DNA of 24,213 bases from a virus (taxonomy: Duplodnaviria > Caudoviricetes). The notes under the pieces were generated by a model. The model ran no database searches. It saw only the letters and a list, made by a program, of their open reading frames with translations, and was not told the origin of the DNA. The DNA lies in IMG/VR virus record IMGVR_UViG_3300037420_000514, positions 1 through 24,213 of that record; one strand, given 5' to 3'. The translations under genes were made by a program, and so were the position numbers. Position 1 is the stretch's first letter; every line of letters starts with the position of its first letter. This document shows, in pieces, positions 1 to 24,213 of the stretch.

Positions 1-35
1 AACGAAATTAGAAATGAGTTAACGGTCACACGTAC

Positions 36-317
36 ACCTATTTTTACACCGTTCCTGCCCAACATAGCCAACTTGTCAGCCCACTGCTGGGGTTAAACAG
101 CACTGAGGCGGCTATGGTCACTTTTCCGTAGGCAGCTGACCGCAAGCTGTTAAGGAACGGATCGCGGCGGCCACTCCCTTGCCGAAACTCAAAAGGGAGA
201 TATCTACATAGAGGGCAGCTGTCGCGAACCGGTGGTGCGAGGAGTGGATAGCTGCCTTCTTATAGGTATAACCTTTAAACGTACCATGCCCCACTGGGGC
301 GGTCAATGGAAATAGGT
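36..317 (+). ncRNA. Candidate large structured non-coding RNA, family not recognised
   Basis: Nested helices found by eye: closing 11-bp stem 36-46/307-317; 49-56/153-160; 63-69/110-116; 76-79/103-106; 85-89/98-102; 131-137/145-151; 174-180/193-199; 201-206/263-268 plus a 14-bp stem 210-223/247-260; 288-292/296-300. TGACCGC (137-143) is complementary to GCGGTCA (299-305), a possible pseudoknot. Several pairs are G-U on the + strand, which supports that orientation. No credible ORF. Confidence 0.55.
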
Positions 318-549
318 TCCAGCCGCCAAGACGGTTTATGCAGGAATTTTGGGAAATGGATGCGAACACCGGCCACAAAAAGGCTGATTTACCGCCAATG
401 TATAGAAAAATTCATAATCGTATTTTTTGATAACCGCGAAAACGTTGATTTGGCGGGCTTTTGGCGTGGGTAAAAAGTGCGTAAAAACTTTATTTTACGT
501 AATTATATGGAATTTTTATGCAAAAAAGCTGCATATTGCCGTTTGAAAA

Positions 550-619
550 GCAGGGAAACTTACACCTCACATTATGCAAGGCTGACAGCGGGCTTTCCGA
601 CCCGCTCCCTTGCCCCTGC
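550..619 (+). other. Nested stem-loop element upstream of the first gene (leader or sRNA candidate)
   Basis: GCAGGG 550-555/CCCTGC 614-619, GCAAGG 576-581/CCTTGC 608-613, AGCGGG 587-592/CCCGCT 601-606, with a 20-nt unpaired bulge (556-575). Flanked by TTTGAAA at 542-548 and 621-627. Confidence 0.4.
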
Positions 620-647
620 CTTTGAAATGGTGATAGGAGGATGCTGG

Positions 648-812
648 ATGGATAAACAAAAGGTTCTGCTCAAGATGGATTTACGCATGGCCTGGCTGGA
701 GGAAATGGCAGCACGCGATTACGACGGCGGCTTGCACAATTGGATAGCCATGTACCGCGAGATCAAATATTGGAAGGAAGCAATCGAAAGGGGGGAGTTC
801 GATGGCAAGTAA
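648..812 (+). CDS. Hypothetical protein, 54 aa (MDKQKVLL...)
   Basis: In-frame ATG of track ORF 477..812, with RBS AGGAGG at 635-640. Its end overlaps the start of the next gene. Confidence 0.7.
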   Translation: MDKQKVLLKMDLRMAWLEEMAARDYDGGLHNWIAMYREIKYWKEAIERGEFDGK

Positions 813-1059
813 GTATAGGAAAAAACCCGTAGTAATTGAAGCACTCCAATGGACCGGCGACAATTGGCTGGAAATGGATGCGTTCCTGACGGCCCATCAT
901 TCGACGTTCCCAAAGGACGGCTTCCTTATCATCCACACATTGGAAGGTCCCATGAGGGCGGATAATGGCGACTACATCATTAAGGGCATCCAGGGTGAGT
1001 TCTACCCTTGCAAGCCGACCATATTCGAATCGACATACGATAAGGTGGCGGAAGAATGA
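802..1059 (+). CDS. Conserved small phage protein (KYRKKPVVIEA...TLEG...GDYIIKG..GEFYPCKP family); possible Acb4-like nucleotide sponge
   Basis: The motif set is recognisable as a widespread phage family. G-rich RBS upstream; ATGA coupling to the next gene. The sponge assignment is from recollection only. Confidence 0.8.
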   Translation: MASKYRKKPVVIEALQWTGDNWLEMDAFLTAHHSTFPKDGFLIIHTLEGPMRADNGDYIIKGIQGEFYPCKPTIFESTYDKVAEE

Positions 1060-1298
1060 ATAAGCTGGTGGAGATTGACGGAGAACTGACCGCCATAATC
1101 GACGGCGTGGAATATCAAATAGGAGACGACGTTTCCTATATGGACCTTCATTGGTCCAGCGACTGGAACGGCGACGAGGTGGGTTACGATGATATCCCTG
1201 TTGTCGGCCTCTATTCCTTTAAAGGAACCGAAATCTACATATACCTCAACACGGAGGACGGAACCATCCTGGACATGTGGGAGGATGAGGACGAATGA
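1056..1298 (+). CDS. Acidic hypothetical protein
   Basis: 80-aa ORF with ATGA overlaps at both ends; strongly D/E-rich. Confidence 0.75.
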   Translation: MNKLVEIDGELTAIIDGVEYQIGDDVSYMDLHWSSDWNGDEVGYDDIPVVGLYSFKGTEIYIYLNTEDGTILDMWEDEDE

Positions 1299-1777
1299 AG
1301 TATACCTTCCATTTAGATGCGCCGAGGAAAAACTGGGCTAAACCGATTCAGTACGCCATCAACGAAAAAGGCTGCTGGCATTGTGTCAGCCATACGGGAA
1401 TCCAAAGCGGGTATGTCCAGGTAAGGATAGAAGGAAAACTGGAACTCCTGCACCGCCTTTCTTACGAGCAGCACAAAGGCCCCATACCGAAAGGAATGGA
1501 AATCTTGCACTCCTGCGACAATCCAAAGTGTTTCAACCCGGAACACCTGGAATATGGCACAAAGCAGGAAAATCTGAAGGACCGCGACCTAAAAGGGCGG
1601 CAAGCCAAAGGAGAGCAGAATGGACGCGCCAAGCTAAAGACGCATGAAGTCAGGCAAATAAGGAAAGATCGGCGTTCCAACAGAATGATAGCGCTGGAGT
1701 ACGGCGTGACTGCTCTAACTATTAGAAGGGTGAAATCTCTAAAGACGTGGGTCCACCTAAAGGAGGAAGCGGAATGA
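1295..1777 (+). CDS. Free-standing HNH endonuclease (HNH_3 type) with C-terminal HTH-like DNA-binding segment
   Basis: GCW...GY...HRLSY...GPIP...ILHSCDNPKCFNPEHL..GT..EN, followed by GEQNGRAKL and a helix-turn-helix-like tail. Confidence 0.9.
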   Translation: MKYTFHLDAPRKNWAKPIQYAINEKGCWHCVSHTGIQSGYVQVRIEGKLELLHRLSYEQHKGPIPKGMEILHSCDNPKCFNPEHLEYGTKQENLKDRDLKGRQAKGEQNGRAKLKTHEVRQIRKDRRSNRMIALEYGVTALTIRRVKSLKTWVHLKEEAE

Positions 1778-1992
1778 CCTTCCAAGCGGCGTATTCCTAT
1801 ATAAAGAGAGGCCATGACATCAAGCTGCCGGAATGGGGCGGGTTTTGGACCTGGAACAAGGAACAGGGCACCATCATGATACATACACGGCACGGCGAAG
1901 TGCTGGACATTCGCGAGACAAAGGACCTCGACTATACCATCGGTTTCCTTTTTCGGAATGACTGGCAGCTCGTGGAAAGGAAGGAACTCTAA
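1774..1992 (+). CDS. DUF2829/Tad2-like small protein (72 aa)
   Basis: Start moved to ATG 1774 (RBS AAGGAGG, ATGA overlap with the HNH stop). Pattern MTFxxA...KxG...LPxW...DW. Confidence 0.6.
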   Translation: MTFQAAYSYIKRGHDIKLPEWGGFWTWNKEQGTIMIHTRHGEVLDIRETKDLDYTIGFLFRNDWQLVERKEL

Positions 1993-2180
1993 TGACCTTT
2001 CTTGATGCCGTGGAACACCTAAAAGAAAAAAACCGAGTGAAACGCGCCCACTGGACCGAGGACTACCTGGAACTGTTGGCCGGTTCGTTCCTTCACTATT
2101 CAAAAAAGGATGCTGCCGTGTGGGAAACCATGCTGGAGGACGTTCGTGCTGACGATTGGGAGGTAATACCATGGATGTAA
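1992..2180 (+). CDS. DUF2829/Tad2-like small protein (62 aa)
   Basis: MTFLDAVEHLKEKNRVKRAHW...W....EDVRADDWEVI fits the family pattern M-x-F-x-x-A...V-x-R-x-x-W...D-x-x-A-x-D-W. TAATG coupling to the upstream gene. Confidence 0.7.
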   Translation: MTFLDAVEHLKEKNRVKRAHWTEDYLELLAGSFLHYSKKDAAVWETMLEDVRADDWEVIPWM

Positions 2181-2509
2181 CCCTGTACCCCATCTACCAA
2201 AAAGCCCGTGACCTGTTTGAGAGGACCCAGGAACAGCAGATCGTCAAGGGGCTTCATAAATACGAAGGGCCGTTGAATCCGGCCGAGTGGACGGCCATGG
2301 AACTGATTGACCATGCGATGCAGGAATTGGTCGATGGTGTCCATTACTTGACCGCTTTAAAGGAAAAGGCGGCGACCCTGGAAACCGATAAACAGCTGTT
2401 TGAGGCAAAGCTCATTATCAGCGAGTGGAAAGCGGAGAAATTGCGGCTGGAAAACGAACAGCTAAAAGAGGAAAACAAGCGGATGATACAGCGGTACAAC
2501 GTCCTGTAA
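2171..2509 (+). CDS. MazG-like/all-alpha nucleotide pyrophosphohydrolase-like protein with coiled-coil tail
   Basis: Start at ATG 2171 after GGAGGT. Motif KGxxKY...L...HAMQELVDGVHYL, then a heptad-rich C-terminus. Confidence 0.55.
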   Translation: MDVTLYPIYQKARDLFERTQEQQIVKGLHKYEGPLNPAEWTAMELIDHAMQELVDGVHYLTALKEKAATLETDKQLFEAKLIISEWKAEKLRLENEQLKEENKRMIQRYNVL

Positions 2510-2513
2510 ACGG

Positions 2514-2539
2514 AAAAAACCGCCTGTTTCCGCAGACGG
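2514..2539 (-). terminator. Intrinsic terminator on the minus strand
   Basis: Minus strand reads CCGTCTG-CGGAAA-CAGGCGG-TTTTTT. One pair is G-U only on the minus strand (C-A mismatch on plus). Confidence 0.65.
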
Positions 2540-2606
2540 CTTCCTTGGTATTTGTCTCGAATAGGTATTAAAACCAACTAGACACTGACCTAGACTAGAT
2601 AGAGTT
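2514..2606 (-). ncRNA. Candidate ~93-nt small RNA
   Basis: Lies between a minus-strand sigmaA-like promoter (2613-2641) and the terminator at 2514-2539. No RBS-plus-ORF seen. The 5' end is estimated. Confidence 0.4.
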
Positions 2607-2612
2607 ACTTCT

Positions 2613-2641
2613 ATTCTACTAGCGTGGGAATAGTCCGTAAA
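2613..2641 (-). promoter_or_regulatory. Putative sigmaA-type promoter TTTACG-N17-TAGAAT
   Basis: -35 at 2641-2636 (4/6 match), -10 at 2618-2613 (5/6 match), 17-nt spacer. Confidence 0.4.
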
Positions 2642-2670
2642 TAGATTGGCAGCAAGTGAGATAAAAAGAC

Positions 2671-2706
2671 AAAAAAAGAGAGAACGGGGTAGAATCGTTC
2701 TCTTTT
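2671..2706 (-). terminator. Intrinsic terminator, possibly bidirectional
   Basis: AGAGAACG/CGTTCTCT stem. U-tract of 7 on the minus strand (A-run 2671-2677) and a shorter T-run on the plus strand. Confidence 0.6.
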
Positions 2707-2734
2707 CAACAGGGATAGTTATTTACAAAGATTT
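2671..2734 (-). ncRNA. Candidate ~64-nt small RNA
   Basis: Lies between the minus-strand promoter at 2741-2769 and the terminator at 2671-2706. The 5' end is estimated. Confidence 0.4.
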
Positions 2735-2740
2735 ATAGAT

Positions 2741-2769
2741 AGTATAACCGTTATAAACAGTTCTGTCTA
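2741..2769 (-). promoter_or_regulatory. Putative sigmaA-type promoter TAGACA-N17-TATACT with overlapping palindrome
   Basis: -35 at 2769-2764 and -10 at 2746-2741 (both 5/6), 17-nt spacer. Perfect inverted repeat TATAAC-C-GTTATA at 2743-2755 overlaps the -10. Confidence 0.55.
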
Positions 2770-2796
2770 TGACAAAGTATGGAAAGGAGGGTCCGC

Positions 2797-4340
2797 ATGT
2801 CGCAGATCAACTTTAAATGGAAACAGCAAGCCCGCCAAATGACGTTTCTGCGTGCAGCGGGCCTTTCTTATGCCTTAGAGGGTGGTACTCCCCAGCCTGC
2901 CAAAGCCAAGGTTATTGCCTATGGCGGCGCCGCTGGGGGAGGTTAGGTAAGAGTGATGCTCTTATCATGGGTGCGATTATTGCGTGTCTCACGTATGAAG
3001 GGATTGCCGTGGGCTATTTCCGCCGCAAGTTCACGCAATTGGAGGGTGCCGGTGGTGCCATCATGCGTTCATCCATGTTATTAGGTCCCTTAGTCGAGAA
3101 AAAGCTGGTCAAATGGAACGGTTCACTGTACAGGTGGACCTTTTTTAATGGCAGCGTGATTCAATTCGCCCATTTAAACACCGAGGATGATGTACAAAAC
3201 TATCAATCTCAGCAATTTGACATCATCTGTTTTGATGAAGCGACCCACTTTAGCCGTTTTCAGTATCGTTACATGCTGTCCCGGAACCGTTCCAACACGA
3301 AAGCCATGCCGCGCCCTTTCATTATGATGGGGACCAACCCTGGCGGAATCGGCCATACGTGGTTCAAAGACGAGTTTGTGAGAATCGGAGAACCGGAACA
3401 GGTCCATATGGTAGAAGTGGAGCCTGGACGGTACGAGGAACACCTATTCATCCCTGCCAAACTGTCCGATAATGCGGCGCTGGAGGAACGGGACCCGGAA
3501 TATCGGAAGAACCTGGAGAACCAGCCCGAGCACATCCGGCGGCAGCTCCTGGAGGGTGACTGGGATGCGGTGGACGGCGTGGCCTTTCCGGAATGGCGGC
3601 AGGCCATCCATATTATTGACCCGTTTGAGATACCGGAGGAATGGGTGCGGTTCCGGTCTTTGGACTGGGGCTATGCGAAGCCGTATGCCTGCCATTGGTT
3701 TGCGGTGGATTATGACGGCCGTCTGTACTGCTACCGCGAACTGTACGGCTGGGGCGGCCAAGCGGACAAAGGCTCGAAAGAGGACCCGTCTGACGTGGCC
3801 CAAAAGATATGGGAAGCGGAACACTGGCAGGATGAAAACGGCAAATGGCACGGGGAGCATATCCATGATGCTGTGGCGGACGATGCAATTTTTGGCGGCC
3901 GTCAAGATAACAGCAAGGATATAGCGGAGCAATTTGCTGATGCCTTTATCGCGCTTGATAAAAAGCATGGCACCAAAAGCACGTTATGGCGGCGTGTGGG
4001 CAAAGGGCCGAAATCCCGGATTAGCGGACGCCTGGAGCTGCACCACCGCCTGAAATGGGAGAAGGACGAACGGGGAGAATGGACCGGAGAACGCCCGATG
4101 CTGGTATTTTTCAAGAATGCTAGGCACATTATCCGTACCCTGCCGGAACTTCTGAATGACGAGACAAACTGGGAAGATGTTGACACCGAGATGGAGGACC
4201 ACGCCTACGATAGTGTCAGATACGGATGTCAATCACGGCCTCTGACCACCAAAGCAAAACGACCGGAACCGTCTTTGATTAAGCGCCATAAGGACCGCTT
4301 ATCGAAAGAGCGGGTGTTTAAACGCGCCCGGATTATGTAA
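2797..4340 (+). CDS. terL: Terminase large subunit, reading frame interrupted in Walker A; probable join(2797..2943,2949..4340), 512 aa
   Basis: RBS AAGGAGG at 2784-2790 and ATG 2797 give MSQINFKW...VIAYGGAAGGG then TAG (2944-2946). The other frame continues KSDALI...; Walker B ICFDEA, GTNPGG, nuclease motifs SLDWGY and EDHAYDSVRY. The track N-terminus (2817-2945) is off-frame. Confidence 0.92.
2935..2966 (+). other. Candidate translational recoding site (matched GGT codons around a TAG stop, G-run, downstream hairpin)
   Basis: GGG GGA GGT TAG GT AAG, with a 9-bp hairpin GGTAAGAGT-GAT-GCTCTTATC at 2946-2966. Confidence 0.5.
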
Positions 4341-4365
4341 ATTTACACAAAAAGGAGAGATTTGC

Positions 4366-4734
4366 ATGAGTAAATTTGGTTTGTACCCGACAGATATGAA
4401 AATTTCCTGTTCGACGTTCCAATGTTACGGACGCGCGGCCTACTACCTGGGGAAAGATGATTCCCCGAACGGCACCACGACGATTATTTGCCAAGAATGC
4501 GCCGACAGCCTGATAGGAAACATCGTGCTGGAACATGCGAACCCGATACCGCAAGAATTGCCGTTCGAACCAACGAACGAAGAACTGGCAGAACCGGCAG
4601 ACATGCTGTTTGACCGCCCTGTATCTGACTGGACGATTGCCGAACTGAAAGAAAAGGCCGCTGAACTGGGATTAGAGGTCAAAAGCAAAATGAACAAAGC
4701 GGACCTCGTTCACCTGATTGAGGGAGCGGTATGA
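4366..4734 (+). CDS. Hypothetical protein with N-terminal Cys cluster and C-terminal Rho_N/HeH-like domain
   Basis: RBS AAGGAG; CSTFQC...CQEC; C-terminal WTIAELKEKAAELGL....MNKADLVHLI. Confidence 0.75.
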   Translation: MSKFGLYPTDMKISCSTFQCYGRAAYYLGKDDSPNGTTTIICQECADSLIGNIVLEHANPIPQELPFEPTNEELAEPADMLFDRPVSDWTIAELKEKAAELGLEVKSKMNKADLVHLIEGAV

Positions 4735-4997
4735 ATGAAATGATGCTTCTCGCCCAGCTTGCCATTAACGTTGCGGCCATCCTGTACCTGAACCGCATGG
4801 TGAGCGAATACCGCGAGGAAATCACAGAAATCCATGAGGCCTACCGCGAGGAACGAAAAGAGCTTCTCGACCGCATCATGGCCAACAACATTACCGAATT
4901 CAAGACCGCGCGTCAGGAAACGGACGTGAAACGATCTGGGAGCGGTAATTTTTTGCTTGACCGCATGACCAAACACGCGCCGCACGGCGATGAATAA
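4731..4997 (+). CDS. Hypothetical protein with hydrophobic N-terminus and charged helix
   Basis: ATGA coupling with the upstream gene; LLAQLAINVAAILYL followed by an E/R-rich helix. Confidence 0.7.
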   Translation: MNEMMLLAQLAINVAAILYLNRMVSEYREEITEIHEAYREERKELLDRIMANNITEFKTARQETDVKRSGSGNFLLDRMTKHAPHGDE

Positions 4998-5011
4998 AAG
5001 GGGGTGCTTGA

Positions 5012-7048
5012 ATGGACCCATTGGAACAGCGCGACGAACTCCGGTTCAATGAGGAACTGGCGGATTTTGTCAACAAGGAGTACGAACGCCGCCGCATCGA
5101 GCGGAAGCCTTTTGAACTCCAATGGCGGATGAACATGGAATTTTTGAACGGGAACCAATACCTCGACATTGATACCGAATCCATGAGTTTAATAGACGTT
5201 CCGCGCATGTATTGGTACCAGGAGCGGGAAGTCTACAATATGATTTCAACCATTGCGGAAACCCGTATTGCCCGCCTGACGCGCCAAAAGCCCATCATGA
5301 AGGTGCGCCCTGCCTCAAGCGAGCAAAACGACCTCTCAAGCGCCAAAGTGTCCTCCATGCTGCTCAATTCGACGTGGTATGACGAGGATATGGACCGCAA
5401 ATATGAAAAGTTCATCGCATGGCTGGAAACGACCGGCACCGCCTTTTTCAAACCCATCTGGAACAAGGACAAAGGGAGAATCCTTCAGGAAGATATTGCC
5501 GAGAAGGAACCCCAGGAGCTTGTGAAAGAGGAAGAAAAGAAAGAGGAAGGGCACCAAAAATACAACCTGAACGACCCGTTCCAAAGCGCCGAGAAACGCA
5601 TTATCCTGCGCGAGGGCGATGTGGAGACGGAAGTGTGCTCCGCGTTTGAGGTCTACCCGGACAATTCGCACGGGGACTTTGACGACTGCAAATCCGTGAT
5701 TCACGCGCGGGCCTATCATGTCGATGATATCGAGGATTGGTGGGGCGAAAAAGTAGAGGAAGAAAAAGTCGATGTGGTCACGCTGCAAAGCGGCACCAGC
5801 GGCATTGGCGGCCTTGGGTATCAGGTCGGAAGTTTTCGCTATACCACCCAATCCTTGAAAAAACACGCGCTATTAAAAGAATATTACGAACTGCCTTCCA
5901 AACGTTATCCGTATGGACGGCTTATTGTCGTGGCCGGAAACAAGACTTTGTACGCCGGTGTGCTTCCCTACAACATCGGGGAGGACGCGGACCCTTACTT
6001 TCCGTTTGTCCGTGCCGTTTCCATTCCGGTTGTGGGGAGTTTCTGGGGAAAAAGCATCATTGAACGCTGTATTCCCATACAACGGCGTTACAACGCATTA
6101 AGGAACCGAAAAGCTGAATATCTGAACCTAGTAACCGTGGGCCAATGGTATGCGCCCGAAGGGGTGGTCGAGGATGAAAGTGTGCTTAACAACGAGCCAG
6201 GAAACATCATTCGTTACCGAAACCTGGGCAATGGCATCAAGCCGGAGCCGGTGGTGTTCCCGTCTTTGCCGTCCAGTTTCGAAATGGAATCACAGACCCT
6301 TATGCAGGAGTTTACCGCCGTAAGCGGCGTCTCCGAACTCTCCCGGTTCTCAGAAGCGCCGAGCGGCGTGAAGTCGGGCGTGGCCTTGTCGATTGCCTCG
6401 GAACAGGATGATTCCCGGATTGGCCTGACCGCGAACCAATTGGAGATCGCAAGCGTCGACCTCGGCAAGAAATGGCTGCGCCTCTACCGCCAGTTTGCGA
6501 TGGAGCCGCGCATTATCCGGTATGTCGGCAATTCCAATGAGATTGACGTGCTGTATTGGGAAGCGTCAGACCTCAGAAGCGACGACGTGATTGTCGATAA
6601 TTCAAGCGCATTGGCAGAAACACCGGCACAAAGGCGCCAAATGGTGTTTGACCTTATCAACACCGGCATCTTTAACCGTCCGGAAACCAACCCGTATACG
6701 TCAGAGGGCGTCCGCAAAATCCTTGAAATGCTGGAATTCGGAGCCTGGGAAGGCGGCGTGGATGAAGATAGCGAGCTTCAGGAATCCAAAGCGAAGCGCG
6801 AAAACCGCCAAATGCTGGATGGCACCCTGCTTCCGGTCAATGAGTATGACGATGATGCGCTCCATATCCGTGAGCACTATCGCTTCATGATGTCTACCGA
6901 TTACGAGGAAATCATGCTTAGTGAGGAAGGACCGCAGATTGATGAGCTGTTCAAGGCCCATTTAGATGCCCACCATCAGCGTTTGCAGTTTATCCAAATG
7001 CAGCAGCAGATGGCCGCACAACAGCAGCAAGAACAGGCGAAAGCCTGA
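5012..7048 (+). CDS. Portal protein (long, P22-like podovirus type)
   Basis: 678 aa between terminase and scaffold. Portal-like segments TGTAFFKPIW, YFPFV, FWGKSIIERCIPIQRRYN, PGNIIRY, SGVAL; Q-rich C-terminal helix. Confidence 0.88.
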   Translation: MDPLEQRDELRFNEELADFVNKEYERRRIERKPFELQWRMNMEFLNGNQYLDIDTESMSLIDVPRMYWYQEREVYNMISTIAETRIARLTRQKPIMKVRPASSEQNDLSSAKVSSMLLNSTWYDEDMDRKYEKFIAWLETTGTAFFKPIWNKDKGRILQEDIAEKEPQELVKEEEKKEEGHQKYNLNDPFQSAEKRIILREGDVETEVCSAFEVYPDNSHGDFDDCKSVIHARAYHVDDIEDWWGEKVEEEKVDVVTLQSGTSGIGGLGYQVGSFRYTTQSLKKHALLKEYYELPSKRYPYGRLIVVAGNKTLYAGVLPYNIGEDADPYFPFVRAVSIPVVGSFWGKSIIERCIPIQRRYNALRNRKAEYLNLVTVGQWYAPEGVVEDESVLNNEPGNIIRYRNLGNGIKPEPVVFPSLPSSFEMESQTLMQEFTAVSGVSELSRFSEAPSGVKSGVALSIASEQDDSRIGLTANQLEIASVDLGKKWLRLYRQFAMEPRIIRYVGNSNEIDVLYWEASDLRSDDVIVDNSSALAETPAQRRQMVFDLINTGIFNRPETNPYTSEGVRKILEMLEFGAWEGGVDEDSELQESKAKRENRQMLDGTLLPVNEYDDDALHIREHYRFMMSTDYEEIMLSEEGPQIDELFKAHLDAHHQRLQFIQMQQQMAAQQQQEQAKA

Positions 7049-7173
7049 TTATGATAAAAAACTTTGACCAGGGATAAGTACCCCGACCAAGTAACCCCAG
7101 GGCTATCTTTCATTACAAAAGAGAGTACAGGGTGAAACAGGGCGAACGTTACAGTCACAAAGGAGAAAAACAC

Positions 7174-8040
7174 ATGTCTAACTTGCTTTTAAAACTCGAT
7201 TTGCAATTCTTTTCAGCCGACGGCGGCGGTGAATTCGGCGCGTATGACCCATCCAGCGCCTTTGAAGGAATCGGAGCGGAGCCGGTACAGCCGGAAGGCC
7301 AGGGCCAAGTTCCATACACCGAACCCCAACAGCCGGAACTTCTTGATTTTGGCGGGCGAAAGCTTCAAGCCAACGAGGATTTAATGGGTCTGCACAAGGA
7401 TTTCACCGAACAGCAGCGTTACATCACGTCTCTGCAAGAACAAGTCAACGCGTACAAACAGCTGGCGCAAACGGTCCAGACACCGCCGCAGGTACAGCCG
7501 CAAGCCCAGCCGCAGGAAATCAGCTCCAACGTGAATGAATGGAATGAAGAAACCTGGCAGCAGTTTTACGACAAGCCGCAGGAAGTCATCGGCCAGCTCA
7601 TTCAGCAAAACGTTCAATCCTATATCGAACCGATTATGAAAGAACGCCAATGGAATGATGAAATCCAGCGCATGTACTCGTCGTATCCGGATTTCGACCA
7701 ATATATCGGCGACATTCAAGGCCTTGTTCAGCAGTTTCCGGATAAGTACGCAAACGGCGGACTGGAAGATGCGTATTACCGAGCGAAAGCAACAAAGGCG
7801 GCGGACCCGGCGGCACTTGCCCAGGACCCGCAATTTTTACAGCAATATGTCATGAATAACCCACAGGTCCAGCAACAGGCCGTGGGCCAGTATTTTCAGC
7901 AAAAACAACAGGTGAACCAGCAAATCCCAGCGGCAATGGGCCGAGGGATGGGCGGTTCCACCCCTCTGACGCCGGATGCTTCCCCCACTACGTTGAGAGA
8001 GGCGTCTAGGCAGTTTCTCAAACAATTAGGAATCAGATAA
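7174..8040 (+). CDS. Capsid scaffolding protein with N-terminal Prp-type cleavage motif
   Basis: RBS AAGGAG and ATG 7174; MSNLLLKLDLQFFS; Q/P-rich helical protein immediately upstream of the capsid gene. Confidence 0.8.
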   Translation: MSNLLLKLDLQFFSADGGGEFGAYDPSSAFEGIGAEPVQPEGQGQVPYTEPQQPELLDFGGRKLQANEDLMGLHKDFTEQQRYITSLQEQVNAYKQLAQTVQTPPQVQPQAQPQEISSNVNEWNEETWQQFYDKPQEVIGQLIQQNVQSYIEPIMKERQWNDEIQRMYSSYPDFDQYIGDIQGLVQQFPDKYANGGLEDAYYRAKATKAADPAALAQDPQFLQQYVMNNPQVQQQAVGQYFQQKQQVNQQIPAAMGRGMGGSTPLTPDASPTTLREASRQFLKQLGIR

Positions 8041-8055
8041 GGAGTGAAGTAAACG

Positions 8056-9465
8056 ATGGCATGGTTAAATATGACCGCTGCATCCGAAGCCTTAAAGATC
8101 AACTATCTTCCGGCATTGCGATACCAGCTAAACACAGCGAACCCGATTCTATCGGTAATTGAAAGAAACTCTGAAAGTGTAGTAGGTTCAGAGGTTAGGA
8201 TGGCCCTTAGATACGGCCGTCAAGGCGGCGTGGGCAACCGCGCAGAGGACGGAATTTTGCCTCAGCCTAACAGCCGTAAAACAAAGCAGGCAAAGTTCGA
8301 AACAAAGAACTTGTTTGCTAGAATCCAAATCTCAGACAAAACGATGAAAGCCTCCCGTTCCCGTGACGGCGCGTTCGTTAGTTTGCTAGAGGCGGAATTA
8401 GAGGACGCACAAGCAGACGCCAAGGATATGATGGCCCGCCAGGTATTCGGCGATGGCACAGGAAAATTGGCAACGTTCTCCGCTGCCACGACTCAGAACA
8501 CTCTGACCGTATCCAGCACGCAATACTTTGTCGAGGGCATGTTCATTGACATCATGGACAACGCCAACTCCGTGAAAGTATCCCAGCGCGAAATCACAGC
8601 GGTGGACGATGTGGCCGGAACGATCACGATTTCCGGTGCAGCGGTGACGACTGTTTCGACTGACTATGCGGTTCTTTATGGCAACTACAACCAAGAGCTG
8701 ACTGGATTTGGGGCGGTGTTCCAAAATGACAACACCATTTACGGCATCAACCGTGCGCAAAACAAGTGGTTCAACCCAACATTAAAATCAAGCGTGGGCG
8801 CGATTTCTGAAGTCGGCATCCAGCAATTGATTGATGATGTGGACCGCAAAGCGGGGGCGAAAACAAACTTCCTGCTTTCTTCTTACGGCGTTCGCCGCGC
8901 GTACCAAGACTTGCTTTTGGCTACGAAGCGTACAACAGACGTCATGAAATTAAAAGGCGGCTATGAAACCCTAACGTTCAACGGAATGCCGTTTGCGGTT
9001 GACAAGTATGCTCCGGCAGGGACTTTATACGGCCTTGACCTTTCCACTTGGAACCTGTACCACATCGAGGACTGGAACTGGTTAGAAGAGGACGGCGCGG
9101 TTCTTAATCGTGTGGCAGACCGTCCGGTTTGGGAAGCTTCGATGGTTTAAGTATTAGACCCTATATGAAGCGATTCGTATAGCAAACCCCTCTAATTGCT
9201 GGGAACCCCTAACGTATAAGACGAGGGCAATCAGCAGCGAAGCCTGTGAAAACAGGAACGTTCAACGACTAGGATTTATTCCGTAGGGCGCAAGGGCGCT
9301 CGAAATGGGGGGCATCTCTAGTAGATGATGATATAGTCTGACCTCTATGGAAACATAGAGAGATTGTACGGAACCGGTGCAATCGTAACATTAGTGCGAT
9401 ACTGCGACCTGGGATGTTCAAAACCAAAAGGCAACTTCATGGCTACAGGCATTACAGAAAGATAA
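8056..9465 (+). CDS. Major capsid protein, spliced: join(8056..9147,9397..9465), 386 aa
   Basis: Position after the scaffold; HK97-fold-like segments (ARQVFGDGTG, IYGINR, LTFNGMPFAVDKYAP). Removing the intron joins ...WEASMV in frame to RYCDLGCSKPKGNFMATGITER*. Confidence 0.88.
9148..9396 (+). mobile_element. Group I self-splicing intron (IA-like, no ORF), 249 nt
   Basis: P AATTGCTGGG 9194-9203, Q AATCAGCAG 9229-9237, R TTCAACGACTA 9261-9271, S GATATAGTC 9330-9338. P1 is GGTT|TAA-GTA-TTA-GACC with U-G at the 5' splice site. P7 GACTA/TAGTC, two extra hairpins between P7 and P3', P8, P9 CTCTATG-GAAA-CATAGAG, terminal G9396, P10 GTATT/GATAC. Confidence 0.93.
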
Positions 9466-9477
9466 TAACAACTAACG

Positions 9478-9517
9478 AAAAGGGGGGAGTGCCAATAGCG
9501 GTACCCCCCCTTTTTTT
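9478..9517 (+). terminator. Intrinsic terminator after capsid exon 2
   Basis: GGGGGG-a-GTGCC / GGTAC-CCCCCC stem followed by T7, starting 13 nt after the exon-2 stop. Confidence 0.85.
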
Positions 9518-9534
9518 GTAAAGGAGTGGAAAAA

Positions 9535-10785
9535 ATGGCAGCTTATGATGCACAAGACGATATGCTGAAAGTCAAATCGACCCAAAAAAAATTCCGTGAC
9601 AGCTTTGCCGGTTCCTCATTGGACACGGAAAAATGGGATGTGGTGGCGGTAACAGGCGCCCAAATGAGTGTGACTGTTTCAGGCGGAAACTTGACCTTTG
9701 GGTCTGGAACGACGGCCAATGCGGAAACACAAATCATTTCAAAAGAACGCTTTACCGTACCGTTTCGCATTTCGTATGGTCTGACGTTATCCCAGCGTAT
9801 TGCCAATGCTACATTCATTGTAGAAGCCGTTTCGATTGACCCGAACACCGGGAAGGTGGACAACAAAAACATTGTCGGGATGGTCCATGACGGAACCACA
9901 GCAACAAGCATCAAGTACCGCGTGGCAAATGGCGGAACGGCGCCGGTGGATACGTCCAATACATTCCCGACCACCGCTGCTGGCGGCGTGTATGAAATCG
10001 AGCCGTTTGCCGATGAAGCTTGGTTTCACGGCGGCACAATAGATTCCAACGTGGCCCGAGCGAACAGCTATCGCCGTCATTCCAACATTCCGGACCCGAA
10101 CCAATATTACAAAATCCGGATTCGCTGGCTGAACGGCGGAACAGCGCCAGCTTCCAACACCAATGCCGTCATGGCGTTTATCGCCTGCCAGGACTATGCT
10201 GAACTGACGGCTGAAATCACGGCCGGTCGCGGACAGTCAACTGCGGGTCAGGCCATCGGTGTTCAAGTGGTGGGCGGAAACTTGACTTCCCCGCAAGCTA
10301 TAGGCGGGCAATATGCACATGACACAGCAACCGCAAACAATCCTGTCACCATCGGAGCTAGGGCCATTAACGTGGCGCCGACAGCGGTCAGTACGACTGG
10401 CGACGTGACGAACCTATACGCAACAATGGTCGGAGCGCTCATTTCCAAGCCTTATGCCATTCCGGAAGCCGATTGGCAATATGCCTGCGCGGCACCGGTT
10501 ACGGTCACGACCGACCAGGCGGTGAAAGCGGCAGGAGCGGCAGGCGTCCGAAATTACATGACAAATATCCAATATATGAATACCAACGCAACGGCGACAG
10601 AAGTTGTCGTGAAAGACGGCTCTACTGTCATTTGGAGAGGGTATGCCCCTGCCAGCATGACCACGCTGATCGACGTGCAATTCCCGACACCTTTAAAGGG
10701 GACAGCGGCGACCGCGATGAACTTTGCCTGCATTACAACCGGAGCGAACGTGTATATCAACGCACAAGGCTATATTGCGCCATAG
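9535..10785 (+). CDS. Putative virion structural protein (beta-rich; head decoration/spike candidate)
   Basis: RBS AAGGAG and ATG 9535; T/A/G/V/N-rich, 416 aa, directly after the capsid gene. Confidence 0.65.
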   Translation: MAAYDAQDDMLKVKSTQKKFRDSFAGSSLDTEKWDVVAVTGAQMSVTVSGGNLTFGSGTTANAETQIISKERFTVPFRISYGLTLSQRIANATFIVEAVSIDPNTGKVDNKNIVGMVHDGTTATSIKYRVANGGTAPVDTSNTFPTTAAGGVYEIEPFADEAWFHGGTIDSNVARANSYRRHSNIPDPNQYYKIRIRWLNGGTAPASNTNAVMAFIACQDYAELTAEITAGRGQSTAGQAIGVQVVGGNLTSPQAIGGQYAHDTATANNPVTIGARAINVAPTAVSTTGDVTNLYATMVGALISKPYAIPEADWQYACAAPVTVTTDQAVKAAGAAGVRNYMTNIQYMNTNATATEVVVKDGSTVIWRGYAPASMTTLIDVQFPTPLKGTAATAMNFACITTGANVYINAQGYIAP

Positions 10786-10796
10786 GAGGCTGACAT

Positions 10797-10988
10797 ATGG
10801 ATATTATCGCCATTCAATGTCTGGAGATTAACGACTATTCGGCAGATGGGTATTATCTGGTAGTGTTTGCCGTTTCTTCCAATGACCCGGAAATGTACAC
10901 AAGCGCCACCTTCAATTTGACGATGGCTGATGCAAGCGGGCTGGAAGTGGGAAAATTTTATGACCTGAAACTGAATGAAATCATTTAA
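10797..10988 (+). CDS. Small acidic hypothetical protein
   Basis: RBS AGGAGG; 63 aa. Confidence 0.7.
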   Translation: MDIIAIQCLEINDYSADGYYLVVFAVSSNDPEMYTSATFNLTMADASGLEVGKFYDLKLNEII

Positions 10989-11002
10989 AAAGAGGTGAAA
11001 AC

Positions 11003-11236
11003 ATGCCAAGCTGGACACCGAATTTGGGCCTGGAAACCTCCGAATACGGAGTGGACCGGGTAAACAGAAACTTTGAAATCATTGACGAAGCCCTGGCTGG
11101 TATTGGCGGCGGCGGGGTGGAAACCGGAACTGCTTTTCCGACCGACAACCTGACATCCGGCCGTTTGTTTTACCGGACCGATGAAGAAAAACTTTATGCC
11201 TACAACGGCACCGCCCAGGCGTGGGTAGAGAAATAG
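11003..11236 (+). CDS. Short fibre-like/adaptor protein
   Basis: RBS GAGGTG. TPNLGL...NRNFEIID resembles fibre N-terminal anchors; ends with a FP....G.LFYRTD...LY.YNG...W fibre motif. Confidence 0.6.
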   Translation: MPSWTPNLGLETSEYGVDRVNRNFEIIDEALAGIGGGGVETGTAFPTDNLTSGRLFYRTDEEKLYAYNGTAQAWVEK

Positions 11237-11252
11237 AAAGGGGTGACACCTT

Positions 11253-12254
11253 ATGGCTTTCCCAATTAACCCGGCGGATGGGACGAAATTCACGTTCGGG
11301 GAATGGCAATATCAATTTGACGCGCTGAACAAGGCGTGGAAAAAATATACACCGGCGATTGCGGGGGTTCCCTTAGAAACGGAATTGGGGATGAATCAGC
11401 CGCAGATACAAGGATTTGATACCGTGGTAGCTGATAGAGGGGTACTGTTATGGACCGACACCCCGTCTTATAACTCGTGGATCGGCTATGACTTTAAAGT
11501 AACAACCGACAAAATGCTGGTTGCTATTAGGTTCTTTGCCTTATCTAGCACATCAAAACTCGGCATTTGGGATGTGGCGACAAAAACTAAAATAGCGGAT
11601 TGGGCTGCAACCGGCACAGGCGACTGGGTGGATTTCACCTTGCCGACACCCGTTACATTAAAAGCTGATGTAGCCTATTTTCTCGGAACTTATACCAATT
11701 CCTCGCCGGGACATCCTTACTATTTGGGTGTAGGGTCCGGTTACACCAAAAATGGTATTGTTTTTATCGACGGACGCACCGCGCTTGCGAACGGGGACGT
11801 ATGGCCGATCAACAATGGCGGCGGCAGCATGTATTCCAGGCTGCATCCGGTTGTAACAGACCTATCGTTATCCGCAAAAGTGACAGATTTATCGTCAACA
11901 GCCGGAACCAAAACCCGTTCCATCGCCTTTCACCTTCACGGCGACCAGGCGGCAGAAACGGGGGCGGTCAGCTTTATTGCACCGCAGGCCCTGACCATTA
12001 CGGACATCCGTGTTTCTGTCGACACAGCACCGGCAGGAGCGGCCTTGACCATTGACGTGAACAAAAACGGCACGACGATGTACACGACCCAGGCCAACCG
12101 CCCTTCGATTGCAGCGGGGGCGACAAGCGCAACGGCGACCTTGCCGGATGTGAAAACCATGGCTTTGGGTGACAAAATCAGCATCGACATTGACCAAGTG
12201 GGGTCGACCACGGCAGGGAAGAACCTGAACGTGACGCTGATCTGTACGGAGTAG
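11253..12254 (+). CDS. Fibre protein with DUF4082-like central domain
   Basis: N-terminal FPINPADG...QYQFD...W fibre motif; central IGYDFKV..DK.LVAIRF...W...LPTPVTL; C-terminal ALTIDVNKNGTT...DIDQVGST domain. Confidence 0.6.
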   Translation: MAFPINPADGTKFTFGEWQYQFDALNKAWKKYTPAIAGVPLETELGMNQPQIQGFDTVVADRGVLLWTDTPSYNSWIGYDFKVTTDKMLVAIRFFALSSTSKLGIWDVATKTKIADWAATGTGDWVDFTLPTPVTLKADVAYFLGTYTNSSPGHPYYLGVGSGYTKNGIVFIDGRTALANGDVWPINNGGGSMYSRLHPVVTDLSLSAKVTDLSSTAGTKTRSIAFHLHGDQAAETGAVSFIAPQALTITDIRVSVDTAPAGAALTIDVNKNGTTMYTTQANRPSIAAGATSATATLPDVKTMALGDKISIDIDQVGSTTAGKNLNVTLICTE

Positions 12255-21496: not shown

Positions 21497-24213
21497 ATGG
21501 CGTACAACAGTAAAAACGACGAAGAATTACAGAGGTATATAGAATACCTGAAAGAACGCATGAACCGGCCGGATTACCAGCCAAAGAACTTATATCAGCC
21601 ACCGGCGAAACCGAAATCGGTTACGGTGAAGCAGGATACATCGAAAAAACATACGCTTTTAGACACCCTGAAAGACAGCTACAAGCGGGCGCAAGGGGAT
21701 AACGGAAAATGGGATTTAGGCGATGTGGGCCGGATGGTCAACTCCGATTATAACCCGTTTATGTCACCGACGCTAAGAATGCTTCAAGGGGCGATCAATC
21801 CCAACGATGCCAAACAATCCACCGGCTCGAACGGATTCTTAAAACAGTCCGGAGCAAGCCTTGTGGCCGGAACCGGGGATTTGGTCAAAGGACTAGGCGG
21901 AACGGCGCAATGGCTTTCAGACAAAGGAATTGGCAATCAATTTACCGCAGATTTAGGGGAGAAACTCTCCGATTTCGCCCAGGATAAGATGATCGACCCG
22001 TATGAAATGCCGACCTATGAAGGGGAATTCGGCTGGAAAACATTCGCGGACCCACGATTCTATTCCTCCAGTGTCGCACGGAGCATTCCGTTTGCCGCAA
22101 GCATGTTCATTCCAGGTATGGCCGGAGCGAAAGCGGGTGCCGCCATCGGGGGAGCTGCCGCAAACGGCATGAAACTCGGAGCCATCGGCAAGAACGTCCT
22201 GCGTTTAGTGGGCGGAGGTTTAGGCGCACACGCAGCGACCGGTCCGATGGAAGCGGCCTTTGAAGCCCAGGATGTGTACCATCAGGCATTAGAGGCAGGA
22301 CACGACGAAAAAACCGCTGACCAAATGGCGACCCAAGCGTTTTGGGATAACGAAAAAGTCTTAGCCGCGTCTCAAACACCGGAATTCATGATGATGTTCG
22401 GACCGTTATTGCGAAATAGTCCAGCCGGAAGTGTCGCCTCCAGCTTACTCAGCCGGATTGGCAAAGCAACAGGTGCCATCGCCGGTTCTGCCGCATTAGA
22501 GGGCGGGCAGGAATACGTCCAGCAAGGGATACAGGATAAAGCGCTTGGCAAGACGGACAGCATGTTTAAGCCTGCCGATATGAATTCAGCATTAGAAGCA
22601 GGAGCCGTCGGTGCGTTACTCGGCGGAGTGATGGCGGGGGCGGGCCGTTTTACGGAAGGGCGTCACCCAAACAATCCGACCAATCCAAACAATCAGCAAC
22701 CAAATAATCAGCAACAACCAAATACTCAGCAGGCGCCAAATCAACAACCGAACCAACAGCAGGCATCAAATAATCAACAGCAACCGAATACTCAGCAACA
22801 GCCAACCCAGCAGAACCAACAACAAGCGCCGAACCAGCAACAACCGACCCAAAAGGCACCGAATCAGCAACAGCCGACCTGGCAGCAACAATGGCAGCAA
22901 GCCCAGCAGGCCCTTGGCGGAGCGGACCCGCAAACGGTCCTTCGAAATAATATCCGCCAGCGTTTGTCCGCCGACTTGCAGGATGCCGTGGACTTCACGC
23001 GCGATCAGCTGGAAGCAGATAACCGTTACACGCCGGAAGAAATCGAGGATAAACTCGACGAATTTATCTTGCAACAGCCGGAAGGCCAAACACTGTTGGC
23101 GGAAGAATTTGCCCGCCTGAATGAACGGGTGAACCAAACCCAGGCGCCAACCAGCCCAACCCAGGCAGAAGCGGCAGTCCAGCAGGCTCAGCAAGCGAAT
23201 GCAGACCTGAATGCCCAGCTTCAACAGAACTTACAGCAGTTACAGCAAGCCGCGCAGGCCCAGCAAACCCAGGTGAATCAAGTGGTGGGGCAAGCGGACC
23301 AAATGCAACAGCAAGTGATGGGGCAACAACCACAAAAGACCGGCCAATTATCCGAGGACGCCGAAGGTATCGCCAATCTATTCAATGCGATGGGGTCTGG
23401 ATTCAAGGAAGCGGCAGACAAGCAACGAAATGAATTGCTGAAAAAAGACGGCTATTTGGAATATAAAAATCCCGCCGCGATTGATTTGTTCCGCCAGCAA
23501 AACCAAGGGTGGAGAGAAGAACCGCAGGCAGACGGCACGATTCGTTTTTATCCGCCGAAAGAAGCGGAACAAGCTGCCGATTTCCAAAAAGGCGATACGA
23601 TCACCAACGCATCCACCGGAGCTGTAGGGACTTATGACGGGGAAGCGAACCCGAAGAACGACAAACTATTTAAAGTCACCTTGCCGGACGGGAAAGTGCA
23701 GTTTTGGTCTAAGGGCAATATGCGCAAAGGCGATGTGTCCAGCAAGTTAGTGGAACCAAAAGACTTTGGGGATGTAGAACCGGATACAAGCGACTTAACC
23801 GAGGAAGAACAAGCGGCATTCCAAGCGGAACAAGAAAAACAAAAAACAGACCGCGAAGGGGAGACATTCCCGCTCGGTTCCAAGGTTAATGTCAAAAATT
23901 TAAGCGGCGAGTTCGAAGTCATGAAAAACCACGACGATGCGACCTTGACCGTAAAAGGGCCAAAAGGTAATGAGTTTACTGTCGGCCGTGCCGGGGCGAC
24001 ACCGGTACAGAAAGAAGCACCGAAACAGGAAGCGCCGAAAACAAAAGACGAAATGGAACGCAACCATCCAAATAAAGCGAAATTGTATGTTGGGGATAAA
24101 GTCGTCTTGAAGTTTACGAAGAAAAACGAGCCGCTTATCGTGGTATCAAAAGAAGATACGGGCTTTATGTCGCGATATGCAGACGAACCGCAAGGAAAAC
24201 CGTTTTTTGCCTA
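21497..24213 (+). CDS. Large putative ejection/DNA-delivery protein, partial (>900 aa, runs off the window)
   Basis: RBS then ATG 21497 (MAYNSKNDEELQRYIEYL...). Open at every segment I translated and absent from the ORF track, consistent with no stop before the window end. Gly/Ala hydrophobic segments, a Q/N/P tract, small beta-barrel-like units. Confidence 0.8.
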   Translation, partial: MAYNSKNDEELQRYIEYLKERMNRPDYQPKNLYQPPAKPKSVTVKQDTSKKHTLLDTLKDSYKRAQGDNGKWDLGDVGRMVNSDYNPFMSPTLRMLQGAINPNDAKQSTGSNGFLKQSGASLVAGTGDLVKGLGGTAQWLSDKGIGNQFTADLGEKLSDFAQDKMIDPYEMPTYEGEFGWKTFADPRFYSSSVARSIPFAASMFIPGMAGAKAGAAIGGAAANGMKLGAIGKNVLRLVGGGLGAHAATGPMEAAFEAQDVYHQALEAGHDEKTADQMATQAFWDNEKVLAASQTPEFMMMFGPLLRNSPAGSVASSLLSRIGKATGAIAGSAALEGGQEYVQQGIQDKALGKTDSMFKPADMNSALEAGAVGALLGGVMAGAGRFTEGRHPNNPTNPNNQQPNNQQQPNTQQAPNQQPNQQQASNNQQQPNTQQQPTQQNQQQAPNQQQPTQKAPNQQQPTWQQQWQQAQQALGGADPQTVLRNNIRQRLSADLQDAVDFTRDQLEADNRYTPEEIEDKLDEFILQQPEGQTLLAEEFARLNERVNQTQAPTSPTQAEAAVQQAQQANADLNAQLQQNLQQLQQAAQAQQTQVNQVVGQADQMQQQVMGQQPQKTGQLSEDAEGIANLFNAMGSGFKEAADKQRNELLKKDGYLEYKNPAAIDLFRQQNQGWREEPQADGTIRFYPPKEAEQAADFQKGDTITNASTGAVGTYDGEANPKNDKLFKVTLPDGKVQFWSKGNMRKGDVSSKLVEPKDFGDVEPDTSDLTEEEQAAFQAEQEKQKTDREGETFPLGSKVNVKNLSGEFEVMKNHDDATLTVKGPKGNEFTVGRAGATPVQKEAPKQEAPKTKDEMERNHPNKAKLYVGDKVVLKFTKKNEPLIVVSKEDTGFMSRYADEPQGKPFFA
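22666..22910 (+). repeat. Low-complexity Q/N/P coding repeats
   Basis: Encodes NPNNQQPNNQQQPNTQQAPNQQPNQQQASNNQQQPNTQQQPTQQNQQQAPNQQQPTQKAPNQQQPTWQQQWQQ. Confidence 0.8.

Follow-up and report, generated by a model that had tools for sequence, protein, structure and literature searches.

We describe here a real and apparently undescribed family of structured RNAs with a well-supported fold and with members in phages, prophages and chromosomes of spore-forming bacteria. Comparison of the members establishes a core built as a three-way junction with two stacked pseudoknots and an optional third, together with the strand of the RNA, about a dozen invariant unpaired bases and a location upstream of packaging or head genes, in sense orientation to them. 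As for function, we lean, if only slightly, towards the family being either the first bacterial xrRNA, that is, a protein-free knot with which phages of spore-formers would stop RNase J1, or else a self-cleaving ribozyme of a new class, built on a tandem-pseudoknot core.

The window, by which we mean the whole stretch of DNA analysed (24,213 bases), is a linear IMG/VR entry carrying a packaging and head module with genes for the terminase large subunit (terL), the portal and the major head protein. A near-identical record (L083, G001) overlaps positions 3-175 and provides the upstream DNA missing from the window, and the gene ending about 100 bases ahead of the window is that of the terminase small subunit (terS; Pfam PF03592). 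The flagged stretch is non-coding and sits after terS, ahead of a series of small ORFs that lead to terL; a scan of window 1-900 returned neither sigma-70 promoters nor terminators. Contigs of 11 runs from soil or rhizosphere contain it, with no RNA datasets among the holders listed, and position 48, an A in the window, is a G in most of the run contigs examined and in the near-identical phage. The same records offer several observations in their own right: positions 480-585, also non-coding, are conserved in a diverged run contig and in other contigs and are possibly a pac or late-promoter region; a group I intron (Rfam RF00028, 104.6 bits) lies at 9138-9360, at the 3' end of the major head protein ORF; the last ORF (21497-24213) runs about 5,080 further codons in G001, giving a giant virion-type protein; and the two records overlap at both ends, which suggests a genome near 61 kb.

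A separate observation concerns terL itself, which is interrupted within its Walker A motif by five additional bases carrying a TAG stop (2941-2955), the upstream frame stopping at GGAAGGG and the next frame picking up at GKS. The same gap is present in 8/8 pattern matches in unrelated phages and in L105, L106, L108, L111 and L154, with terL intact in L107, L109, L110 and L151-L153, and the take-off and landing glycine codons do not always match. A ribosomal stop-hop is the likely explanation; the Hau3 terminase offers a comparison (PMC10732093). The idea that the RNA excises or guides this gap in trans was rejected, since ten gapped loci have no RNA match and the carrier G005 has an intact terL.

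The original prediction had proposed a unit of about 280 nt at 36-317, and its five pairings are all present in the sequence: a closing stem (36-46/307-317, 11 bp including two G-U), a 14-bp stem (210-223/247-260), two pseudoknots (137-143/299-305 and 91-95/269-273) and an alternative pairing (171-177/241-247). Folding was more stable than expected on the + strand (z -3.27, 0/200 shuffles as stable) and not on the - strand (z -0.70). Perfect helices of at least 7 bp numbered 8 against 1.8 in shuffles (0/200 as high); those of at least 5 bp gave no clear excess (36 against 29, 17/200 as high). The minimum free energy fold contains 11 G-U among 89 pairs, and the argument that such pairs favour an RNA on the + strand held up across the family, where G-U pairs outnumber A-C pairs 43 to 5, which points to the + strand RNA as the folded molecule. 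Covariation across the collected relatives strongly supports a structured RNA and thereby upholds the broader claim, a pseudoknotted + strand RNA of a Bacillota-type phage that has no Rfam family. The predicted extent and details have to be revised. A structured RNA is indeed there, but conservation is confined to 44-199, about 155 nt; pseudoknots exist in the family, but they differ from the two proposed, as loop 138-144 pairs with 164-167 instead of 299-305, and 90-93 pairs with 57-60 instead of 269-273. The noted pseudoknots, the closing stem and the 14-bp stem are present but private to the source phage. An RNA of the large GOLLD or ROOL kind, which had also been considered, does not fit, the conserved unit being too small.

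Downstream of the core lies a lineage-specific extension containing the 14-bp stem, a complement of the P3 loop at 299-305 and the 3' arm of the closing stem. Window 200-330 had no nhmmer match downstream of 27 other members, and a 6-base complement of the loop L3 occurs downstream in 1/28 members, namely the window. In isolation, the 7-bp pairing of L3 with 299-305 is stronger than the conserved PK1 (-11.2 vs -5.0 kcal/mol); it would exclude PK1 and may thus serve as an off-switch private to this phage. In the near-identical phage the heptamer is present a second time, at 22-28. The G005 copy is followed by a long imperfect hairpin (L115 2124-2216) that is unrelated to this extension.

Several search strategies returned little. 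In blastn comparisons against annotated phages and plasmids nothing useful and no plasmid match was obtained, a pattern made from the two pseudoknots of the original prediction hit 0 IMG/VR contigs, and exact window motifs matched only the near-identical phage or chance coding sites. Two diverged copies are known from a low-depth contig of one run, in which the loop and the next 21 bases are kept and stem pairs are changed, and from the related phage record G005, where the RNA directly follows terS. A degenerate pattern built from the window and these two copies gave 57 IMG/VR matches, of which 15 were kept with full stems and 42 were dropped for missing stems. Alignment A5, with 13 distinct sequences including the window, has 99.5% of its cells paired and 26 double changes against 5.8 in shuffles. 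Model R1 holds P1 and P3 only, and neither R1 nor R2 holds pseudoknot pairs; R1 scored members at 80-151 bits and everything else in 99 sources at 24 bits or less, as it did those of the dropped pattern matches that were given to it. Genome searches with R1 found new members in 4/11 and 9/151 genomes, and those with R2 found members in 11/151 (class-wide sample) and 8/41 (one genus). With only the top candidates scored, R2 yielded 0/151 in a phylum-wide sample, a model search of a further four genomes 0/4, and pattern samples of 401 genomes each yielded none, one chance-like hit without model match and one true member, respectively.

In all, 54 members from the pattern and covariance-model searches were aligned. 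Alignment A8 omits L159, L209, L218, L223, L224 and L226 as duplicates, truncated or N-bearing, and among 26 later matches 22 were anchored by a sequence rule alone; L245, L251, L252 and L263 could not be anchored. Judging in part from a host kinase at about 80% identity, the carriers are probably Bacilli, in part Paenibacillus-like. Genome G842 has eight copies and G991 five matches, and the minimal member measures about 100 nt. Two observations on subgroups may be added: L220, L222-L226, L239, L246, L247 and L250-L252 belong to multi-copy cassettes, each about 370 bases long, that carry the RNA with the same flanks at chromosomal sites unrelated to one another and may be a small mobile unit, and L174, L180, L202, L204 and L240 share a second conserved internal-loop hairpin module just upstream of the core.

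Table. Parts of the RNA in window coordinates, with the evidence for each.
Feature	Positions	Strand	Evidence
Conserved RNA core	44..199	+	model R1 match 41-204, 102 bits (training sequence); 54 aligned members
5' single strand UUAC-N	44..48	+	A46 invariant 41/41, C47 40/41, position 48 variable
P1, 49-56 with 153-160, closes multi-way junction	49..160	+	219/224 cells paired (28 members), swap null 183
Optional PK3, 57-60 with loop bases 90-93	57..93	+	co-occurrence of halves, not base swaps
P2 domain, variable insert	63..116	+	P1-to-P3 distance 18-101 nt, depending on the member
Pyrimidine-rich joiner before P3	117..130	+	often CCUCCUUU in relatives (alignments A5, A8)
P3 hairpin, 7-nt loop L3 138-144	131..151	+	109/112 cells paired
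PK1, loop 140-143 with 164-167	140..167	+	paired 112/112, then 88/88 in later matches
PK2, 168-171 with loop bases 181-184	168..184	+	paired 105/112; 83/88 in later matches
P4 hairpin, A-rich loop	174..199	+	pairing and alignment
Lineage-specific 3' extension	200..317	+	z -3.76; no counterpart in 27 other members

The fold was tested on 28 members, 13 from training and 15 found by R1, and 0/2000 partner swaps, which ignore relatedness, matched the observed pairing of P1, P3, PK1 and PK2. In the same set the highest mutual-information pairs were the known helices, with no further helix, and in the 22 later anchored matches the counts for PK1 and PK2 given in the table compare with about 65 of 88 by chance. 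Across lineages with cores 53-75% identical to that of the window, PK1 takes no fewer than four pair types; P1 and P3 covary, and P2 is sometimes branched or nearly absent. From the co-occurrence of its halves (of 41 members, 14 have both, 24 have neither and 3 disagree; Fisher p 5e-8) we infer PK3 to be a third, optional pseudoknot. Conservation starts 4-5 nt before P1. Unpaired bases invariant in 41 non-redundant members are A46, then G138, A139 and A144 in L3, A152 after P3, U162 and C163 in the P1-PK1 linker (161-163) and a single A in a loop; C47 and a further two loop As are nearly invariant. Among paired positions, the PK2 pair G170-C182 is invariant.

That the RNA might be undescribed, as had been suggested, is borne out so far as the catalogues searched go. 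Against Rfam 15, the window and L115 gave only weak unrelated matches at E up to 10, and searches of other loci (11 at E<=5, 20 at E<=1 and 15 at gathering thresholds) gave no match on a member; its motif strings were not found in an RNA context in the papers searched. Other ornate RNAs of Bacillota and prophages, such as raiA, ROOL, GOLLD and the DUF3800 motif RNAs, differ from the family in that it matched none of them in Rfam at permissive thresholds. Screens from the Breaker laboratory published in 2021-2024 could list the family unnamed. The searched part of the supplements of Fremin 2023 held no match, and an anonymous listing there is possible (PMC10690425). ROOL, moreover, averages 581 nt in the part of its description available to us, making the present RNA much shorter (PMC5737381).

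Genomic context bears directly on function. At 11/12 other phage loci, annotated terminase, portal or head genes lie on the same strand within 3 kb; at four of the twelve the RNA stands behind an activator- or sigma-like gene, at one after terS as in the window and at two just after the portal gene; in one prophage terS is preceded by two copies. Genomic copies occupy prophage-like sites beside recombinases or YolD genes as well as scattered chromosomal cassettes. Adjacency to terS, terL or portal is what would recommend a phi29-like packaging RNA or virion part, as had been raised for this sequence, yet the RNA is missing from 81/84 sources compared, close terminase relatives included, it co-occurs with unrelated terminase families (phrog_2, 9, 38 and 979) and many copies sit at non-phage chromosomal sites, so that we regard such a role as very improbable. 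The RNA is evidently dispensable, since L002, with 72% terL identity and a complete terS-terL interval, lacks it. In this relative the interval holds a non-coding, structured-looking stretch with a tRNA-like piece (L002 1650-2330), with a weak folding z of -1.27 and no Rfam or ARAGORN match; in a more distant relative it is filled by a DUF3800-VII RNA (L105 3375-3464) and tRNAs.

Within these loci the RNA tends to stand at transcript boundaries. A terminator-like hairpin lies within 40 nt upstream in 8/27 cases (0.4 expected; three are near-identical copies), and CATA occurs 8-14 nt upstream in 13/43 (2.3 expected; the best of 256 four-mers, chosen after inspection), with no -35 element emerging upstream of members. 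Downstream, a terminator-like site follows within 200 nt in 4/28 (0.4 expected), in 13/28 the start of an ORF with a ribosome site lies no more than 100 nt away, and the genes share no common function and no expression platform. Some copies have terminators on both sides.

Because of these boundaries, and because conservation starts near the halt distance of xrRNAs, we place first, as a tentative reading that we consider possible and no better than that, that 44-199 acts in cis near the 5' end of a transcript by mechanically blocking the host 5'-to-3' exoribonuclease RNase J1. The bacterial group that carries the RNA uses RNase J1, and we know of no bacterial xrRNA. The RNA would be transcribed as part of a late or moron mRNA; pairing of L3 with the strand just after P1 would encircle the 5' strand with a ring of some 18-20 nt, the arrangement of flaviviral xrRNAs, PK2 would lock that strand further through the P4 loop, and the nuclease would halt near the conserved UUAC, stabilising the mRNA behind the RNA. 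Unrelated downstream genes suit such a portable stabiliser. Counting against it, the terminator-like sites downstream in 4/28 would leave little mRNA to protect there, and about 450 nt separate the RNA from the next ORF in the window.

In the available part of their description, class 1 xrRNAs share with the family a three-way junction, pairing of L3 with a strand 3' of P1 and conserved bases before P1; they bring the nuclease to a halt 5-6 nt before P1, and bacterial RNase J1 is shown to be blocked by an xrRNA (PMC5760640). The likeness is topological only: the family resides in bacterial DNA phages and chromosomes, has no sequence likeness, has a longer P1 (8 bp) and adds an optional third pseudoknot, and PK2 stacked with the P4 loop has no counterpart in that part of the description. 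In class 1 xrRNAs two 5' bases pair into the junction and a base triple is formed (PMC5760640); for A46 and C47 the possible partners U162 and G138 are all invariant, so the paired fraction equals chance.

The dozen or so invariant unpaired bases would suit a catalytic or binding pocket equally well, and this leads us to a nearly as probable alternative, a new small self-cleaving ribozyme class that would cut near its 5' edge (A46-C47, variable 48) and process late polycistronic RNA. The compact double-pseudoknot core with invariant G, A, C and U in loops and joiners, the freely variable peripheral insert and the patchy, multi-copy, phage-intergenic spread all recall small ribozymes such as pistol, twister and the HDV-like class, which have similar size and pseudoknots; pistol ribozymes, in the available account, have about ten conserved bases and lie near phage genes in Firmicutes (PMC4604425). 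Connectivity nevertheless differs and cleavage in the family is hypothetical. No known ribozyme family matches, no other self-cleaving ribozyme occurs in any member locus scanned, and all members found have the same open-P1 form, although the models could not have found permuted forms; if the 5' end is a start site in some members, a cut there would free only a few bases. Two specific candidates were rejected. Pistol pairs its P1 loop with the P2-P3 junction, as far as its available description goes, and has no Rfam match here, and an HDV-type P2, between the strand before P3 and that after P4, fails the swap test (own duplex -1.68 vs swapped -2.15 kcal/mol, 272/300 swaps as good).

Less probable again, and in itself unlikely though still a close rival, is a cis RNA antiterminator that would load onto RNA polymerase where the late operon begins and allow read-through of the terminators of inserted morons. 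The sense position heading the packaging operon, the four activator- or sigma-like genes and the downstream terminator-like sites would agree with it, and the start-of-operon position is true of most phage loci, though not of the scattered chromosomal cassettes that make up many copies. Terminators, however, are found just upstream more often than downstream, window 200-12000 shows no surplus of terminator-like sites (13 vs 15.3), a relative with a 72%-identical terminase lacks the RNA, and no plasmid match was found. At L265 5805-7580 and at L266 5399-7174, two outward-facing copies flank genes for a YkuD peptidoglycan-binding protein and DUF1657, near a cell wall hydrolase. An analogy of such divergent pairs (G754, G1228) with putL/putR of HK022 was not supported, the genes between them including no repressor. 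EAR, put and conAn2 are all cis RNAs near the start of a mobile element's long operon; EAR is an Rfam family, which members did not match in Rfam searches. By the available parts of their descriptions, put of HK022 is a 65-nt double hairpin, unlike the family (PMC8632103), and conAn2 stands at the start of long Gram-positive conjugation operons, is accompanied by a gene for a partner protein and is poorly conserved in sequence (PMC8191782). A conAn system was rejected for the family, which has no constant upstream or fixed partner gene and no plasmid match in blastn.

Slightly lower still, and doubtful, is a riboswitch-like leader that would bind a ligand or a protein, or else a separate small RNA with a promoter of the late or sporulation type. 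The invariant bases look pocket-like, the pyrimidine tract is one we take to resemble an anti-Shine-Dalgarno, CATA is the -10 of sporulation sigma factors, and some copies are bounded by terminators. Against this stand the lack of a shared downstream gene function or expression platform, the missing -35 element and the joiner, which has no partner 3' of P4 and for which swapped downstream sequences are as good pairing partners as its own.

It is rare for a new RNA fold to combine two or three pseudoknots with a dozen invariant bases, and any of the leading functions would be notable if true. Self-cleaving ribozyme classes are few, about ten, and exonuclease-proof RNA knots have so far come from eukaryotic viruses. 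For RNA antiterminators, the available part of one account lists only put, EAR and conAn2 (PMC8191782). The motif is short, exists in dozens of natural variants and is present in culturable Bacilli; should the family indeed block RNase J1, it would also amount to a portable mRNA stabiliser for Bacillus.
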